Shown here in pieces: positions 6,922 through 24,126 of a stretch of DNA of 64,000 nucleotides. Numbering within the stretch: position 1 is the first letter of the stretch; each line of letters begins with the position of its first letter. Origin of the DNA: a phage; sequence record PX393108.1. One strand, written 5' to 3'. The notes under the pieces are model-generated. The model had not been told where the DNA came from. It did no database searches and worked only from the letters and a program-made list of their open reading frames with translations. The position numbers and the translations under genes are program-made.

Positions 6922-7308
6922 TTATTCGAGGGAAAGAAGATATTTACTTTGATAAAACATCCCAGTAATATCATCTATCGTGCTTTGAATGGCTGGAGGC
7001 ATTTCTTTATAAATGCTGTTAGACTGGTCTAGTATGCGATCAATCATTTTAATTGTGTCGGTAGGAAGTTTACTGGCATCCGGAATTGACGGCGTGTATT
7101 TTCTACCAGAATACCCCAAATATTGCTCACCAAATTTATCAATCAAATCTGGTAACTCAGAGAAAATAAAATCGTATGCTTTGTGTCTAGCATAACTTTT
7201 AGTTTCAAAATGCGCAGAATGAAAATAAGCTTGTGCAGCCATTAATAAACCTAAGTATTCATCTGCCTTTGAAGGTTTTCCACTTTGTGAAAAGTCGCTG
7301 AATTTCAT
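6922..7308 (-). CDS. rI.-1: rI.-1-like protein
   Basis: 128 aa ORF immediately downstream of rI as in T4. Confidence 0.6.
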
Positions 7309-8456: not shown

Positions 8457-8663
8457 TTAAAGCGTATTCACATAAGCTATTAATTCGTTTTCTTTCTTAT
8501 CAAACCGGTCAGCAAATTCTTCTTGCTGTTCGGGAGATAGCGGGCCGTATTCATCATAAAAGGTGTTTGCTTCTGTATGCTCATCTAGAAGTTCATGGAT
8601 AAGCTCAAACAATTTATCTTTTTGTTCTTTACTCAGACTCATAACCATGTAACCTTTAAGCAA
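8457..8663 (-). CDS. hypothetical small acidic protein
   Basis: 68 aa ORF. Confidence 0.45.
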   Translation of the reverse strand: MLKGYMVMSLSKEQKDKLFELIHELLDEHTEANTFYDEYGPLSPEQQEEFADRFDKKENELIAYVNTL

Positions 8664-12842: not shown

Positions 12843-13316
12843 TTATTTGAATGATTTGACGTACTGAATAGAACCTTTACTATTCACGAAAGCGATTTTA
12901 CCATTCTTATTATACATGGTAGCAGTACGCTGATAGCCATAAGTTTGCTTACCAGATTGATAACCAACTAATGCGAAATTATCTTCACCCATTTTATTCT
13001 GTTTAGCACGAATACGTTCATGACCGTGTGCCATAAGAACCTTAGCATCACCAGTTGAAATTGATCTACGAGTTTTTTCATCTTCAACTGTATTAACAAA
13101 GTCGTCAAATGAATCAAATTTAGCATGGGATTTATTATACAGTTTTCCATCTACTGCATAATTATATCCCTGTACATCCATCTCAACTTCTGTACCATCA
13201 TCCAATACAGCAGTGATTTTTTGACCTTTTTTAAATTTCAAAAGATCAGTAAAAGATTCAGCAATAATTTGAGAATTAATAGCTGCTTCAGTAATAAATT
13301 CTTGATATGTTTTCAT
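12843..13316 (-). CDS. internal protein (IPIII-like), N-terminal capsid targeting sequence MKTYQEFITE
   Basis: 157 aa; first 10 aa match the T4 IP capsid-targeting sequence with gp21-type L/I-x-E cleavage site. Confidence 0.7.
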   Translation of the reverse strand: MKTYQEFITEAAINSQIIAESFTDLLKFKKGQKITAVLDDGTEVEMDVQGYNYAVDGKLYNKSHAKFDSFDDFVNTVEDEKTRRSISTGDAKVLMAHGHERIRAKQNKMGEDNFALVGYQSGKQTYGYQRTATMYNKNGKIAFVNSKGSIQYVKSFK

Positions 13317-13330
13317 GTGTATCCTTTAAT

Positions 13331-13648
13331 TTATTCTTTAGGGAAGTTTTTAGAATATGCATCATAAAGCTTATTTCCAATACGGCGGAAAACTCTAGCC
13401 GCAAAACGATTTTCTGGGTTTTTAATCATGATTTGCATCATATAAGTACCCGCGTCAGAAAGAGCTTCTTCATAGTACCCATTAATTTCTTTAAGAGTCC
13501 TACGTTTACCACCAGGACCATCAACAGTAATTTTCCATTTACCTGTAGAAGTGCGGCTCGGTGGCTCAACTTGTTCAATCCAAATATAACCTCCTTCTAC
13601 ACGTTGTCCTTGGGCAGATTCTGCAATAAATTCTTTATACGTTTTCAT
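13331..13648 (-). CDS. internal protein (IPII-like), CTS MKTYKEFIAE
   Basis: 105 aa; CTS motif. Confidence 0.7.
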   Translation of the reverse strand: MKTYKEFIAESAQGQRVEGGYIWIEQVEPPSRTSTGKWKITVDGPGGKRRTLKEINGYYEEALSDAGTYMMQIMIKNPENRFAARVFRRIGNKLYDAYSKNFPKE

Positions 13649-13657
13649 ATGTTTCCT

Positions 13658-14074
13658 TTAAATGTAAATATTTTTGCCGTAATACTTGTACCAGTGTGGC
13701 TTTATTAAAATTTTTTCATCGAGTCGTTGTTGACTCAATTTAATAGCTGATTTGCATGGATTATAATCATTTTTCCATTCTGCTGGAATATCGCTGATGT
13801 CGGGAACTTCAGTATCTTTTATACTAAACCCACGTTTTAAGCATTCCGTTATAATGTCTGATTGACGCTTTCGCAAAAATTCTAACTTATCGTAAAAGAA
13901 CGTAACATGACCAGAACCTAAAATAAACTCGGAAGATATTTTAAAATCTTTAACCCGCTTACCATTTGCCACGTGTTTACGAACTATACCAAAAACACGT
14001 GGCAATTCACGGTATTCTGCGATTAAATGCTGATCAGCAAGTTCAGATACTAAAGTCAAATTAATACGAGTCAT
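13658..14074 (-). CDS. denV: endonuclease V (pyrimidine-dimer DNA glycosylase)
   Basis: 138 aa; [17 protein letters not shown]...WYKYYGK matches recalled T4 DenV. Confidence 0.9.
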
Positions 14075-14133: not shown

Positions 14134-14664
<531 letters not shown>

Positions 14665-17607: not shown

Positions 17608-18006
17608 CTATTTCATTTTTGCGAGACAGATTTCGTTGGCTTCCCATTGAGCTTGCTTAATAATAGCTTTGGATACAGGAACCTTTTGACCATAAGTTTT
17701 TGATGTTGAGAGAACAATATATTTGTTTGCCTCATTATGCCAACCCCATGATTTTTCACCATGAGTACCTTTAACTACAGCTGACACCTCAACAGAACAA
17801 CCATCAGCTCCAATCTTGGTATCCACAATCCATTCATTTCTCTCGGCAGCTTCATTTTCCGACCTCATTTTTTCTTCATACACGGCGGCCCAATCAGTTT
17901 TTGTCAAGCTTAAACTAAGAGCTTTCTCTAATTCTTTGGCAGCTTTTTGTTGTTCGGGTGTTAATGAATTATATAACTCTCGCATTTCTTTATCTTCAAT
18001 ATTCAT
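17608..18006 (-). CDS. hypothetical protein
   Basis: 132 aa ORF. Confidence 0.5.
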   Translation of the reverse strand: MNIEDKEMRELYNSLTPEQQKAAKELEKALSLSLTKTDWAAVYEEKMRSENEAAERNEWIVDTKIGADGCSVEVSAVVKGTHGEKSWGWHNEANKYIVLSTSKTYGQKVPVSKAIIKQAQWEANEICLAKMK

Positions 18007-18061: not shown

Positions 18062-18325
18062 TTATTTCATATTATTGAAATATTCTTCTGCGATTTCGTC
18101 GTTATCATGGTAAACTTTAGAAGACAGTTTAACATAACCTTCTGCTGTAAACATGTTAATCACAACCTTTACAGTATACCACTGACCATCTTCATTACCC
18201 ATTACTGCGTAAGTTTCAAACATCGGATGATCAGGACCGATAACTTTAATATCATTCACTGTACGACCGAAATCTTCTGAAACACATTTCATAAAGAAGT
18301 TGAACAGTTCGCCGTAATTATCCAT
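18062..18325 (-). CDS. hypothetical protein (start MDNYGELF)
   Basis: 87 aa from ATG with SD GGAGAATAAA; the longer track ORF would overlap its own promoter. Confidence 0.5.
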   Translation of the reverse strand: MDNYGELFNFFMKCVSEDFGRTVNDIKVIGPDHPMFETYAVMGNEDGQWYTVKVVINMFTAEGYVKLSSKVYHDNDEIAEEYFNNMK

Positions 18326-18368
18326 TTTATTCTCCAAGTTGTTTTCTGTATCAGTAGTTGATATTGAT

Positions 18369-18397
18369 ATAGTACCACGGAAGAACATGGATGTAAA
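18369..18397 (-). promoter_or_regulatory. T4-type early promoter (TTTACA-17-TACTAT)
   Basis: Conserved cassette with ATCAATATCAACTACTGATAC leader. Confidence 0.5.
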
Positions 18398-18564
18398 CAG
18401 TTTTGTGAAAAAAATTTTAAAAAGTTTTAGGGAATTCTAGGGCAGGGAGGGGCAATTAAAGGATAGGATAATATATTATAAAGGGTAGAAACTAAATGAT
18501 GCCTAGAGAGGTCCAGAAAGGCCTAGATACCAAAAAGCCCTATCATTTAGATAGGGATTTAAAA

Positions 18565-19128
18565 TTATTTATCTAGTTTAGTTATTATAGCTTCTGCGGC
18601 AGCTTTTAGCTTAGATGCAGTGTTAATACGATTTTTAATTTCAGTATACGCATCGCCAAGAACATCAAGGCTATCAGAATAAACACTTACACTATTGCGT
18701 TCGCTATTTGAAATAGAACCTTTAGTTTTACGATCAAAATCGGTGTACACGTCTTGAAGATCACGGGCTGCCTTCTTTGCATCATCCAATGCATCAAGAG
18801 CTTTATTCAAAGCATTAACGTATTTTTTAGTGTCGAACATATTCTTAGAAATTTTAACAGGTGCGCGTTCAGGAGTAGCTAATGCAGATTTAGGAACCTG
18901 AGCGCCAGATGCCAATTTCTTAGAAATTTTGAAAAACGCTTTATTGAATTTATTTTCTTGACTCATCGTAAAAGAACTATTATCGATGTTGTACATTTCA
19001 ATAGCTTTAGCTTTCCACTTAAGAAAATCGCCGCGGTCTTTTGGGTCCAAGTGGAAGAATACTTTAGTAAGATCTGCTTCAGATGGTAATTTTGCTGCTT
19101 CGGTTAAAAATTCGGCATAGGTTTTCAT
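18565..19128 (-). CDS. internal-protein-like capsid-targeted protein (CTS MKTYAEFLTE)
   Basis: 187 aa; N-terminal CTS motif. Confidence 0.6.
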   Translation of the reverse strand: MKTYAEFLTEAAKLPSEADLTKVFFHLDPKDRGDFLKWKAKAIEMYNIDNSSFTMSQENKFNKAFFKISKKLASGAQVPKSALATPERAPVKISKNMFDTKKYVNALNKALDALDDAKKAARDLQDVYTDFDRKTKGSISNSERNSVSVYSDSLDVLGDAYTEIKNRINTASKLKAAAEAIITKLDK

Positions 19129-19216
19129 TTAAAATCCTTGAAATAATTTATCGGTTGGTTATTAATTATTTATTACTTTGTTATTATCCGTAACAGCATT
19201 CTCTATGTGATTCAAA

Positions 19217-19248
19217 CTAAAAACCCCAACCTTTCGGTCGGGGCTAAG
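19217..19248 (-). terminator. intrinsic terminator, copy 1 of a 32 nt direct repeat
   Basis: Minus-strand hairpin CCCCGACC-GAAA-GGTTGGGG followed by TTTTT. Confidence 0.6.
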
Positions 19249-19433
19249 AATGTTATTTGATTTGTTTAGCAGACCAAATGCGGTCTTTGATGATTTTTTG
19301 GATGTCTTCAACATACTCTAGGTCATGAGCATGTGGGTTATCTTTGAAACTATAAGCACGAGCTAGTTTTTGGCCTTCAGTTTTGATTACTAAAAGCTCT
19401 TTAAGGATAGCTTCATATTTAGCGATAATTCCT

Positions 19434-19727
19434 TTAACAATATTTTTTTTCTTGTGCAGCTTTAGGATCTGCTTTAGGAGCAGGTTTACCCGAAGCCTTT
19501 GCAAAAGCAGCACCAGTAGCAACTAAACTTTTCCAGGCCATACTAACCGCATTTCCTGTAAATCCTTCTGCTTTCATGTCGCGAGCAAACTGGAATCGTG
19601 ATTCGTCAGAAGCATCTTTATAGGAATATTTACCCGCTGCAATGGCTGCTTTTGCGACAGCTTGAATTTCGGTGCTAGATGCTTCATTTAACACCGCTTC
19701 ATTTAAAAATTGAGCATATGATTTCAT
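19434..19727 (-). CDS. internal-protein-like capsid-targeted protein (CTS MKSYAQFLNE); frame ends just after an A8 tract
   Basis: 97 aa; CTS motif; late promoter upstream; downstream overlapping ORF 19253-19522 continues in another frame. Confidence 0.6.
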   Translation of the reverse strand: MKSYAQFLNEAVLNEASSTEIQAVAKAAIAAGKYSYKDASDESRFQFARDMKAEGFTGNAVSMAWKSLVATGAAFAKASGKPAPKADPKAAQEKKYC

Positions 19728-19766
19728 CTTATTTCCTGTTTTAATTCGTGATTTAATATACTACTA

Positions 19767-19774
19767 TATTTATA
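19767..19774 (-). promoter_or_regulatory. late promoter TATAAATA
   Basis: Exact TATAAATA on minus strand about 40 nt upstream of the IP-like ATG. Confidence 0.5.
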
Positions 19775-19807
19775 CTAAAAAGCCCCAACCTTTCGGTCGG
19801 GGCTAAG
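19774..19807 (-). terminator. intrinsic terminator, copy 2 of the 32 nt direct repeat
   Basis: Same hairpin plus U-run as 19217-19248, one extra G. Confidence 0.6.
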
Positions 19808-19809
19808 CC

Positions 19810-20110
19810 TTGCGGCAACCTTGTCGGGGTTCCACCTGCTAAGGCAAGTGTTTGTACGAAACGCCGGGATTCGAACCCGGTTATTAAGCAGTTGACGCTA
19901 CTTAATATTTTTAAAAGGCCATATCTCGACCATATCCGAACGTTCCGTCAAAAACGCTACTCGGCTTACGGCAAAGATATTTCCTCGAATCGATAATTCG
20001 GTGCGCCGTTTCTGCTGTGATGTAAGAGGGCATCAACAAATCATAAAGATTTATTAACACAATTCCTTACTCAGGGAACATCAGTCCGACGACTTACCGG
20101 TAGCGACCCG
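19810..20110 (-). ncRNA. putative structured small RNA region (tRNA-like T-arm, no cloverleaf)
   Basis: No ORF of 60 codons or more; perfect T-arm-like CCGGGTTCGAATCCCGG on minus strand; in T4 the small stable RNAs C and D map near the tRNA cluster as I recall. Confidence 0.3.
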
Positions 20111-20115
20111 GTTTC

Positions 20116-20466
20116 TTAATATTCTTTTAAAGCATCAATCTGTTCACGACGTTTACGCCATAAATCAATTGCTTCATACGCAGATTCAGCATTTCGAATT
20201 GGACGGCATTTATATAAAGACTTGTGATTTTGATATTGCGTAGATAACGAAATTTTATCTAAAAGGTCTTTACGTTCAAAGTATTCGTAACCATCTAAGC
20301 CAAATGAACGATTTTTGAGAAATTGCCAATGACCATATTCGTTTTCGACATAAACATAATCCGCGTGTTGATAAAGCAAATTAATTACACGTTCAGAAAT
20401 AACAGTGTCATTGTGATTAAAATAAAATGTTAAATCATGAACTACTAAATAAACATTACCTTTCAT
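20116..20466 (-). CDS. hypothetical protein
   Basis: 116 aa ORF between the ncRNA region and tRNA-Arg. Confidence 0.5.
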   Translation of the reverse strand: MKGNVYLVVHDLTFYFNHNDTVISERVINLLYQHADYVYVENEYGHWQFLKNRSFGLDGYEYFERKDLLDKISLSTQYQNHKSLYKCRPIRNAESAYEAIDLWRKRREQIDALKEY

Positions 20467-20472
20467 ATTTTC

Positions 20473-20548
20473 CTCACTTATAATTGGTCGAGGCAGTAGG
20501 GATCGAACCTACGACCTAGGACTTAGAAGGTCCTTGCTCTTCCTTCTG
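20473..20548 (-). tRNA. tRNA-Arg (anticodon UCU)
   Basis: Cloverleaf folded by hand: anticodon loop CTTCTAA, T-arm GTAGG-TTCGATC-CCTAC, CCA encoded. Confidence 0.85.
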
Positions 20549-20552
20549 AGCT

Positions 20553-20628
20553 ATGCCCCGTAATTGGGGTGACCGATGGGAGTCGAACCCATGACTACGA
20601 GAATCACAATCTCGAGTTCTACCAACTG
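20553..20628 (-). tRNA. tRNA-His (anticodon GUG), discriminator C73, no encoded G-1
   Basis: Anticodon stem-loop CGAGATTGTGATTCTCG; 3' end CCACCCCA like E. coli tRNA-His. Confidence 0.8.
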
Positions 20629-20753
20629 AACTACGGCCACATTAATACCTACTCCAACAATCAAGATGTCTTCACACGAAATTAAGAGAAGAGTGATCAG
20701 TTCAACCCTATAATCGCGTCAAGTAGATATTAATGTGACAGTTGTCACAAATT

Positions 20754-20828
20754 TGGCGGACGTGATAGGATTCGAACCTATAACCAATCGCTTAACAGGC
20801 GATCGCTCTGCCATTGAGCTACACATCC
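20754..20828 (-). tRNA. tRNA-Asn (anticodon GUU)
   Basis: Anticodon loop CTGTTAA; T-arm ATAGG-TTCGAAT-CCTAT; CCA encoded. Confidence 0.8.
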
Positions 20829-20832
20829 AAAT

Positions 20833-20919
20833 TGGTGGGGAGTGATGGAGTCGAACCACCCGAGTCGCAATGACAATGGATTTACAGTCCACACCGCTAC
20901 CTCTACGGGATAACTCCCC
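20833..20919 (-). tRNA. tRNA-Tyr (anticodon GUA), long variable arm
   Basis: 87 nt; anticodon loop CTGTAAA; discriminator A; CCA encoded. Confidence 0.8.
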
Positions 20920-20932
20920 TTAATTCTTAATT

Positions 20933-21007
20933 TGGTGGCCCTGGGTGGAATTGAACCACCATCTGGCGATTATGAGTCGCTTGCTTGAACCTTCCAGCTA
21001 CAGGGCC
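20933..21007 (-). tRNA. tRNA-Ile (anticodon CAU, Ile2/lysidine type; Met not excluded)
   Basis: Anticodon arm GCGACTCATAATCGC identical to E. coli tRNA-Ile2 as recalled; CCA encoded. Confidence 0.75.
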
Positions 21008-21008
21008 T

Positions 21009-21085
21009 TGGTGCTGATTGACGGAATCGAACCGCCGACCTTCTCATTACAAGTGAGTTGCTCTACCTACTGAGCTAAATCAGCA
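21009..21085 (-). tRNA. tRNA-Thr (anticodon UGU)
   Basis: Anticodon loop CTTGTAA; perfect 7 bp acceptor stem; 1 nt from Ile tRNA. Confidence 0.85.
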
Positions 21086-21089
21086 AAAC

Positions 21090-21179
21090 TGGCGGAGGCG
21101 ATAGGATTTGAACCTATGAGTCGCCGGAGCGACTGCCGGTTTTCAAGACCGGTGCATTAAACCACTCTGCCACGCCTCC
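21090..21179 (-). tRNA. tRNA-Ser (anticodon UGA), type II
   Basis: 90 nt; anticodon loop TCTTGAAAA region; long variable arm. Confidence 0.85.
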
Positions 21180-21181
21180 AG

Positions 21182-21255
21182 TCTCCATACAAGGATTTGA
21201 ACCTTGGACCTCCTGATCCCAAATCAGGCGCTCTACCAAACTGAGCTACACGGAG
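21182..21255 (-). tRNA. tRNA-Pro (anticodon UGG), CCA not encoded
   Basis: Anticodon loop TTTGGGA; 3' end lacks CCA; 2 nt from tRNA-Ser. Confidence 0.8.
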
Positions 21256-21265
21256 TAAATTAAAT

Positions 21266-21339
<74 letters not shown>

Positions 21340-21344
21340 AAATT

Positions 21345-21431
21345 TGGTGCGAGAAGTGGGACTCGAACCCACAAGGAAATCATTCCGCAGCATTTTAAGT
21401 GCTGTGCCTTTACCAATTTGACCATTCTCGC
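21345..21431 (-). tRNA. tRNA-Leu (anticodon UAA), type II
   Basis: 87 nt; anticodon loop CTTAAAA; long variable arm. Confidence 0.85.
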
Positions 21432-21432
21432 G

Positions 21433-21505
21433 CTGGGAATAAAGGACTCGAACCTTTGCATCCTGGAATCAAAATCCAGTGCCTTACCAACTTGGCTAAT
21501 TCCCA
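21433..21505 (-). tRNA. tRNA-Gln (anticodon UUG), starts with U1, CCA not fully encoded
   Basis: Anticodon loop TTTTGAT; abuts tRNA-Leu as a dimeric precursor. Confidence 0.85.
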
Positions 21506-22993: not shown

Positions 22994-23021
22994 TTTATTC
23001 TCCTCGGTAGTTGATAGGGTA

Positions 23022-23050
23022 ATAGTATCACAACTAAAACCCTATGTAAA
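23022..23050 (-). promoter_or_regulatory. T4-type early promoter (TTTACA-17-TACTAT)
   Basis: Conserved cassette; near-identical to the copy at 23387-23415. Confidence 0.5.
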
Positions 23051-23069
23051 CAACTTTGTGAAATATTTA

Positions 23070-23357: not shown

Positions 23358-23386
23358 TTTATTTTCCTAATTAATTTTGATGAGAT

Positions 23387-23415
23387 AATAGTATCACTAC
23401 CTCATCAACGTGTAA
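23387..23415 (-). promoter_or_regulatory. T4-type early promoter (TTTACA-17-TACTAT)
   Basis: Conserved cassette. Confidence 0.5.
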
Positions 23416-23429
23416 ACAACTTTGTGAAA

Positions 23430-24126
<697 letters not shown>

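Follow-up and report, generated by a model that had tools for sequence, protein, structure and literature searches.

Duplicated rnaC terminators flank an internal-protein-like gene in a Tequatrovirus and probably mediate its gain and loss

The variable locus between rnaC and e.8 in this phage is likely to be explained by a duplication of the rnaC terminator, the two copies of which would recombine with each other so that a cassette carrying an internal-protein (IP)-like gene, gene A, is gained or lost. The window, i.e. the whole 64,000-nt stretch of sequence record PX393108.1 that was analysed, belongs to a Tequatrovirus, and its locus is 99.2% identical to those of Shigella phage SH-1 and E. 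coli phage vB_EcoM_G50 (G50).

The two direct repeats read CTTAGCCCCGACCGAAAGGTTGGGG(C)TTTTTAGT on the minus strand, which also carries all the neighbouring genes, and differ by a single base. On the plus strand copy 1 is ACTAAAAACCCCAACCTTTCGGTCGGGGCTAAG (33 nt, 19216–19248) and copy 2 is ACTAAAAAGCCCCAACCTTTCGGTCGGGGCTAAG (34 nt, 19774–19807). The initial annotation had described this pair as lying in the same orientation, and both copies are indeed read where it placed them, save that the first starts at 19216 rather than 19217. The difference can be scored as one G/C indel or, alternatively, as a single substitution in a 30-nt alignment (97% identity; repeat finder, family D3). Identity between the copies stops at the ends of the 33/34-nt repeat, so their outer flanks are unrelated. 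The 21-nt core CCCCAACCTTTCGGTCGGGGC is present at exactly two sites in the 64 kb with up to three mismatches allowed, and 100 shuffled sequences gave no match.

Both copies form, on the minus strand, the hairpin AGCCCCGACC-GAAA-GGTTGGGG(C/T)T followed by TTTT(T)AGT, with a stem of 10 bp (6–7 GC pairs) closed by a GAAA tetraloop. In copy 2 the hairpin reads AGCCCCGACC-GAAA-GGTTGGGGCT before the U-run, while copy 1 is the same hairpin without the C. RNA folding gave −20.3 kcal/mol for copy 2 and −19.5 kcal/mol for copy 1 (z = −4.2 and −4.7), and no shuffle was as good. The U-tracts directly 3' of the stems, UUUUUAGUAUA and UUUUAGUUUGA, are shortish, with 4–5 U. The two copies are the top two terminator-like sites within 17–22 kb; the total of such sites in this region (5 vs 3.9 expected) is not above chance, and the case rests on these two copies specifically. 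Their assignment as rho-independent terminators is supported by the GC stem, the U-tract and the position at the 3' end of a transcription unit. Copy 1 is annotated as a terminator in G50, and the copies had independently been predicted in the annotations of G50 and PhAPEC2. The earlier proposal that each copy is an intrinsic terminator of the minus strand thus agrees with the anatomy on the gene strand and with the orthology to T4.

Transcription reaches the locus through 11 tRNA genes, then rnaD (species 2 stable RNA, 20000–20119, minus strand) and then rnaC (species 1 stable RNA, 19855–19993, minus strand), which lies upstream of copy 2. Both stable RNA orthologs were placed by alignment to the T4 annotation; an Rfam scan of 18–22 kb returned tRNAs only, rnaC and rnaD being absent from Rfam. 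T4 has one copy of the hairpin (L003, 7835–7858), 51 nt past rnaC and with the e.8 promoter region directly next to it. Copy 2 shares with this T4 terminator of the tRNA/species 2/species 1 RNA unit the same 24-nt hairpin, the distance of 51 nt from rnaC and surroundings that are 95–96% identical, and is, judged by these features, orthologous to it; T4 has no other terminator-like hairpin past rnaC. In T4 the single copy leads directly into the e.8 promoter region. In the window, by contrast, a gene separates it from a second copy, located 558 nt downstream.

Altogether the window carries ~1.27 kb more than T4 between the rnaC terminator and e.8, comprising in order a TATAAATA late promoter, gene A, copy 1, gene B and a further terminator, T_B. 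The latter (CCCTATC-TAAAT-GATAGGG + CTTTTT, 18533–18556, minus strand, −11 kcal/mol) ends the gene B cassette and is unrelated to the repeats. Past T_B the sequence rejoins T4 precisely at the U-run (…GGGC TTTTTGGTATCTA…), that is, at what follows the T4 rnaC terminator, and continues into the e.8 early promoter region (18330–18530) and the e.8 ortholog (87 aa from MDNYGELF, 18062–18325, minus strand), which is conserved and bounds the variable locus on its right.

The T4-type late promoter box TATAAATA at 19767–19774 (minus strand, read from 19774 to 19767) starts at the last base of copy 2 and lies 39 nt upstream of the gene A start codon, so the late promoter that had been noted here is present and touches the repeat. 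The window contains 21 such boxes vs 9.1 expected, two of them 13 nt apart at 14642–14662 on the minus strand. The box beside copy 2 is kept at the same place in G50, F26, G28, PP01, L004–L006, WG01, ESCO10 and AM_K2, and the junction TTTTT(A/G)GTATAAATA is conserved across Tequatrovirus, Dhakavirus and Jiaodavirus. Upstream of gene B there is only AATAAATA, a late-promoter variant that is one base off, and no sigma70-like early promoter was found in or beside either repeat copy. Copy 1 starts 5 nt past the stop codon of the intact gene A allele and sits directly upstream of the gene B cassette. The order terminator, TATAAATA, Shine-Dalgarno (SD) sequence with gene, terminator therefore has the layout expected of the promoter-gene-terminator cassette that was originally suggested.

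Gene A (19253–19727, minus strand; 512 records from several genera) and gene B (187 aa, 18565–19128, minus strand) start with the leaders MKSYAQFLNE/A and MKTYAEFLTE/A, respectively, compared with MKTYQEFIAE/A in T4 IPII and IPIII. Both keep the residues at positions 4 and 7 (targeting) and 8 and 10 (processing) of the capsid-targeting sequence (CTS), namely Y4, F7, L8 and E10, and the pI of the mature parts is 9.4 (A) and 9.5 (B), against 9.6–9.7 for T4 IPII and IPIII. The block of gene B that spans the SD sequence and the CTS codons (19097–19138, minus strand) is 76% identical to the corresponding gene A block (19696–19737; family D4), this leader being common to IP genes. We label the products internal proteins on account of their leader, their charge and the late promoter, which is a reasonable inference and is in line with the original description of the gene between the repeats. 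T4 IPs and the products of genes A and B are alike in having an N-terminal CTS with Y4, F7, I/L8 and E10, in being small and basic, in the late promoter (with the full TATAAATA for A) and in being non-essential and variable between phages. They differ in that there is no similarity beyond the leader and no structural match. Indeed, in BLASTP and hhalign comparisons genes A and B resemble, past the leader, neither each other nor any T4 IP. The sole PHROG match of the two genes is phrog_2280, of 'unknown function'; Pfam gave nothing above threshold, NCBIfam no match and sequence searches of the PDB no relative, and every name in the databases is hypothetical.

Several closer relationships were considered and rejected. 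Genes A and B are not tandem paralogues, as hhalign aligns only the 12-residue leader and BLASTP agrees. Gene A is not an ortholog of T4 IPI, IPII or IPIII; BLASTP to IPII and IPIII finds the leader or nothing. The idea that a Klebsiella-phage homologue fuses the A N-domain to a B-like C-domain was not supported. The AlphaFold2 model of gene A (pLDDT 71) is all-helical with two domains, a confident N-domain followed by a disordered linker and a C-terminal helical hairpin; Foldseek of this model against the PDB gave no match with E below 1.

In the window gene A is frameshifted, with a 97-aa ORF at 19434–19727 that retains the leader and the N-domain and with the remainder in another frame down to 19253, while the intact protein of G50 and most relatives has 157 aa. 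The source of the frameshift is an A8 homopolymer (T8 on the plus strand, 19443–19450, gene on the minus strand) that has one A more than the intact allele. A7 and the intact 157-aa protein are found in most of the 336 records with gene A, SF2-1 and G28 also have the A8 or 97-aa form, and F26 and SfPhi01 are truncated differently, to 111 aa. The run changes length in ~3 of 30 sampled records and is positioned where the C-terminal helical hairpin begins, just past the linker predicted to be disordered. The A8 run could be a sequencing error or a truly slippery tract.

The initial annotation had suggested looking in related genomes for the repeat and for a different gene within it. A 1.5-kb query across the locus matched 676 records in the INPHARED phage collection; an exact-motif scan of IMG/VR gave six loci only. 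The repeat was matched in 424 records, and at least 96 of these have two near-exact copies, with no more than two places per record among the matches listed. The locus is not invariant: both cassettes (A+B) are found in 128 of the 676 records, and among rows sampled evenly down the ranking of these records ~37% have A only, ~10% are empty and ~5% have B only, with further records holding divergent or unrelated contents. Alignment lengths fit whole cassettes, at ~1520 nt for A+B, ~960 for B only, ~830 for A only and ~275 for the empty class, to which T4, RB3 and RB5 belong. Gene B was found in 165 records, with identities that never drop below 85% and reach 95% or more in nearly every case.

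The junctions of these alleles carry the argument. In the A-only phages G28 and PP01 and the IMG/VR locus L004, two hairpin copies still bracket gene A, and the T4-type flank follows the second. The B-only phage EP01 has a single copy, ...GCAAGGCTTAGCCCCGACCGAAAGGTTGGGGC-TTTTTAGTTTGAATCAC, made of the left side of copy 2 and the right side of copy 1, and the T4 junction joins the left side of the upstream copy of PP01 to the right flank of its downstream copy. Junctions fall inside the hairpin or the U-run, with no bases added or lost in either deletion-type allele. As sequences, EP01 and T4 are exactly the products expected of a crossover between direct repeats and, read in reverse, would be the substrates for insertion. 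Moreover, EP01 and G50 have no mismatches over 336 positions to the left of the repeat and 31 over 811 to its right (Fisher p = 2.6e-5), so their relatedness switches at the repeat, which therefore marks a recombination breakpoint. The early suggestion that the repeats could mediate deletion, duplication or exchange is thus supported for deletion and exchange by the natural recombinant junctions of EP01 and T4, while no repeat-mediated duplication was seen among the natural genomes examined.

One candidate for such a duplication was rejected. F26 (L002) carries an extra 350 bp, a tandem duplication that runs from the gene B 3' end through T_B and the e.8 promoter into e.8, of which it includes the first 24 nt. 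It is joined within gene B and e.8 rather than in a terminator (CTGTTC/GCGTAT), and may be real or an assembly artefact.

Comparison across genera reveals that the two copies vary together. In Tequatrovirus both read GCCCCGACC..., with GACC in each. In the Mosigvirus PhAPEC2 (A+B) both read GCCCCTTCCGAAAGGTTGGGGC, a variant that puts a TT/TT mismatch into the stem and weakens it, and in the Dhakavirus WG01 GGCCCTTCCGAAAGGTTGGGC(C) flanks both sides of a two-gene block of gene A and an unrelated gene. Copies within a genome are therefore more alike than orthologous copies between genera, which implies either gene conversion between the copies or re-creation of the second from the resident one; in the latter case a circle or a second genome would recombine at the resident terminator. 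Mosaicism is also found, as in the Dhakavirus ESCO10 (L020), where the rnaC side and the upstream copy are of Dhakavirus type and the gene A 3' end, the downstream terminator and the e.8 flank are of Tequatrovirus type. The Klebsiella Jiaodavirus AM_K2 has a stable RNA region, a hairpin, TTTTTAGTATAAATA and a gene with the N-domain of gene A; its two terminators are unrelated to each other. Since four genera, among them Jiaodavirus, have gene A in this same position, behind a stable RNA, a terminator and TATAAATA, its presence is probably ancestral. From these comparisons, the empty site of T4 would then probably reflect a loss. Gene B, for which nearly all of the 165 records show an identity of 95% or more and a Mosigvirus one of 98%, appears by contrast to be young and moving horizontally. 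Elsewhere, a 251-kb IMG/VR contig (L007) that is otherwise unlike the window has the identical 21-nt core at 6970–6990 and 8608–8628, 1638 nt apart and flanking five small ORFs, and a further locus (L008) has a near-copy of the hairpin core beside an exact copy.

We propose the following mechanism for the origin of this pattern. One copy (copy 2) stands at the original place after rnaC and the other (copy 1) at the 3' end of gene A. Copy 2 would stop early and middle transcription of the tRNA/rnaD/rnaC unit and so insulate the cassette, such that gene A would be read only from its own TATAAATA box, late, at prohead assembly, as the anatomy suggests; copy 1 would end the late transcript of gene A. 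Since the copies are direct repeats, recombination between them would remove or add the gene A cassette and leave one hybrid copy. Such events could take place within one genome or between co-infecting phages, as deletion, insertion or exchange. The predicted excision product has one hybrid copy (…GGGGC TTTTTAGTTTG…), and a junction between hairpin and U-run (…GGGGC TTTTT / …) would also join on the gene B cassette. The outcome would be a four-state polymorphism in T-even phages (A+B, A, B and empty), T4 being most likely the empty state and a deletion derivative. The copies would homogenise each other, or Campbell-type insertion at the resident terminator would re-create them, and in either way they would stay near-identical within a genome. 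Events may have run in either direction, as deletion or as insertion.

Some observations limit how far this mechanism reaches. A repeat of 33 bp is short for efficient UvsX-type recombination, which counts against a crossover between the copies, and the sequence common to the A/B cassette junction and T_B is limited to ~9 nt (GGGCTTTTT). Transfer between genera (ESCO10, and gene B at 98% in a Mosigvirus) weakens the parsimony case for an ancestral gene A. Alleles can spread by flank recombination or SegB co-conversion, so independent repeat events may be few. The unrelated terminators in Jiaodavirus mean that repeats are not required for keeping gene A, and the presence of the same core in an unrelated 251-kb contig means that some hairpin similarity can arise independently.

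The strongest alternative, which we consider unlikely but not negligible, is that the repeats are terminators only, the second copy being a relic, and that the allele classes arose once each by illegitimate events in which the repeat was no substrate for crossover, with alleles now moving by recombination in the conserved flanks or by co-conversion with the homing endonuclease SegB. The presence of segB next to the locus in EP01, G28, PP01 and T4 is consistent with such movement, as are the visible mosaicism of the flanks, the retention of gene A in Jiaodavirus without repeated terminators and the position of the F26 duplication junctions away from the terminators. What tells against it is that both deletion-type alleles join inside the 33-nt repeat with no bases extra or missing, that the relatedness of EP01 and G50 switches right at the repeat, and that co-variation of the copies within genera needs exchange between them. 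Flank recombination and SegB co-conversion may well contribute, but they leave the junction positions and the co-variation unexplained.

It is very improbable that the identity of the copies instead reflects a role at the RNA level, in which the hairpins would stabilise the 3' ends of the rnaC precursor and the IP mRNAs or direct their processing, and would be kept alike through recognition by one RNA-binding or processing factor. A distance of 51 nt does separate copy 2 from the mature 3' end of rnaC, so the precursor would be trimmed, and GNRA tetraloops are common recognition elements for proteins and RNA. However, nothing points to a specific factor, and the loop differs among relatives (GAAA, AAAA or TTAT). 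This reading is in any case compatible with repeat recombination and not exclusive of it. Equally hard to sustain is convergence on an optimal terminator (GC stem, GAAA tetraloop and U-run) by selection rather than descent: the core does recur twice in the unrelated L007, with a near-copy in L008, but in the window identity reaches past the stem (CTTAG on the 5' side and TTTTTAGT on the 3' side), no other terminator there resembles the repeat, and genus-specific variants, including the stem-weakening TT/TT mismatch, are common to both copies.

Recombination between the duplicated terminators, which we favour, has a close parallel in the PeSL (promoter-early stem-loop) cassettes of RB49 and phi1, for which modular shuffling, deletion and mini-circles were described (Arbiol et al., 2010; PMC2839356); PeSL-like elements were also reported at T-even IP loci (PMC2839356). 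In both cases a repeated stem-loop terminator flanks small non-essential genes, indels between close relatives (here EP01 vs G50 and T4 vs PP01) join inside the element, and an excision product with one hybrid copy is predicted, for the window from sequence alone. In contrast to PeSLs, the window repeat has no sigma70-like early promoter and a late promoter abuts only one copy. Only two copies are found across 64 kb with up to three mismatches allowed, instead of dozens dispersed in hyperplastic regions, and the stem is that of the rnaC terminator, not the PeSL consensus. By these sequence features the element is not a PeSL. The GGGC/GCCC ends of the hairpins recall a motif at T4 deletion endpoints that is cited by Arbiol et al. 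(PMC2839356).

For the IP loci themselves, Repoila et al., 1994, as cited in PMC2839356 and PMC12373910, proposed that conserved blocks up- and downstream mediate shuffling. Going by those citations, the T-even IP loci share with ours a conserved leader of 10–11 aa and a gene number, order and identity that vary between phages; the loci they describe, however, are ipI (on the 57B-tRNA side) and ipII/ipIII (denV-e), while the window locus lies between rnaC and e.8. Its flanks are also different, with a strong GC hairpin where Arbiol et al. described early promoters and weak AT-rich stem-loops (PMC2839356).

The window has IP-type genes and variable spots elsewhere as well. Its denV-e locus holds two leader-bearing IP genes (12843–13648), additional to those between rnaC and e.8, whose 5' ends share a 48-nt block of SD sequence and leader (13282–13329 and 13614–13661, 83% identity, 332 nt apart). 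Near ipI a 54-nt block resembling an early promoter is repeated (23011–23064 and 23377–23430, 78% identity, 366 nt apart). Flanking GC hairpins are absent from both the ipI and the denV-e loci of the window. A 116-aa ORF at 20116–20466, between rnaD and tRNA-Arg, where T4 has nothing, is similar to RB69ORF150c according to the annotation of its PhAPEC2 counterpart. The window has 11 tRNA genes (20485–21505) vs 8 in T4, those for His, Asn and Tyr being extra, and it lacks segB. The slot between e.8 and e.6 (17608–18006) varies too, with a 132-aa ORF in the window, WG01 and phage 212, a 58-aa ORF in G50, EP01 and G28, and e.7 (111 aa) in T4 and PP01. Phage BW-1 (OR125554.1) acquired the same rnaD SNP in all lines evolved on ECOR34 (PMC12685909); it has the A+B arrangement, 96–97% identical to the window, with rnaD just upstream of the IP-like cassettes.

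The process is known in kind (Repoila et al., 1994; PeSL cassettes, Arbiol et al., 2010), and the rnaC–e.8 case is a clear added example. Both Arbiol et al., 2010 and Silas 2025 speak of two IP loci, so the one described here would be a third, with an earlier description possible (Repoila et al., 1994; Comeau 2007). Petrov 2010 and Nolan 2006 make no mention of IP genes at the rnaC–e.8 locus, and a literature search on the ORF names returned nothing relevant. The new angle is modest: an apparent third IP-type locus, seemingly lost by T4, together with what looks like concerted evolution of its flanking terminators. More tentatively, and with the balance somewhat against the whole of it being right, all observations could be read jointly as a third T-even IP locus that T4 lost by recombination between terminators and that encodes two injected proteins, has terminators evolving in concert and carries an A7/A8 switch. 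As parts of this joint reading, gene A, known from at least four genera, may be old, gene B may be a recent gene that spreads horizontally, and the A7/A8 run at the domain boundary may act as a switch that determines whether the product has two domains or one.

Internal proteins of T-even phages enter the host along with the DNA. T4 IPI*, IPII and IPIII are injected and inhibit type IV restriction enzymes of the GmrSD type (PMC12373910, PMC3012670), and each of the three studied proteins disarms a different one of these (PMC12373910). The set of IPs therefore helps to decide which wild E. coli strains a phage infects. With this locus come two further leader-bearing proteins, both unstudied, which most sequenced Tequatroviruses have and T4 lacks; this absence may be why genes A and B have been overlooked. 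If the locus is indeed a third IP locus as in the joint reading, A and B would be candidates for new anti-defence specificities. A duplicated terminator would represent a simple route for the gain and loss of IP-type genes, which is of relevance to how fast the host range and counter-defence repertoire of phages, including those used in therapy, can change.
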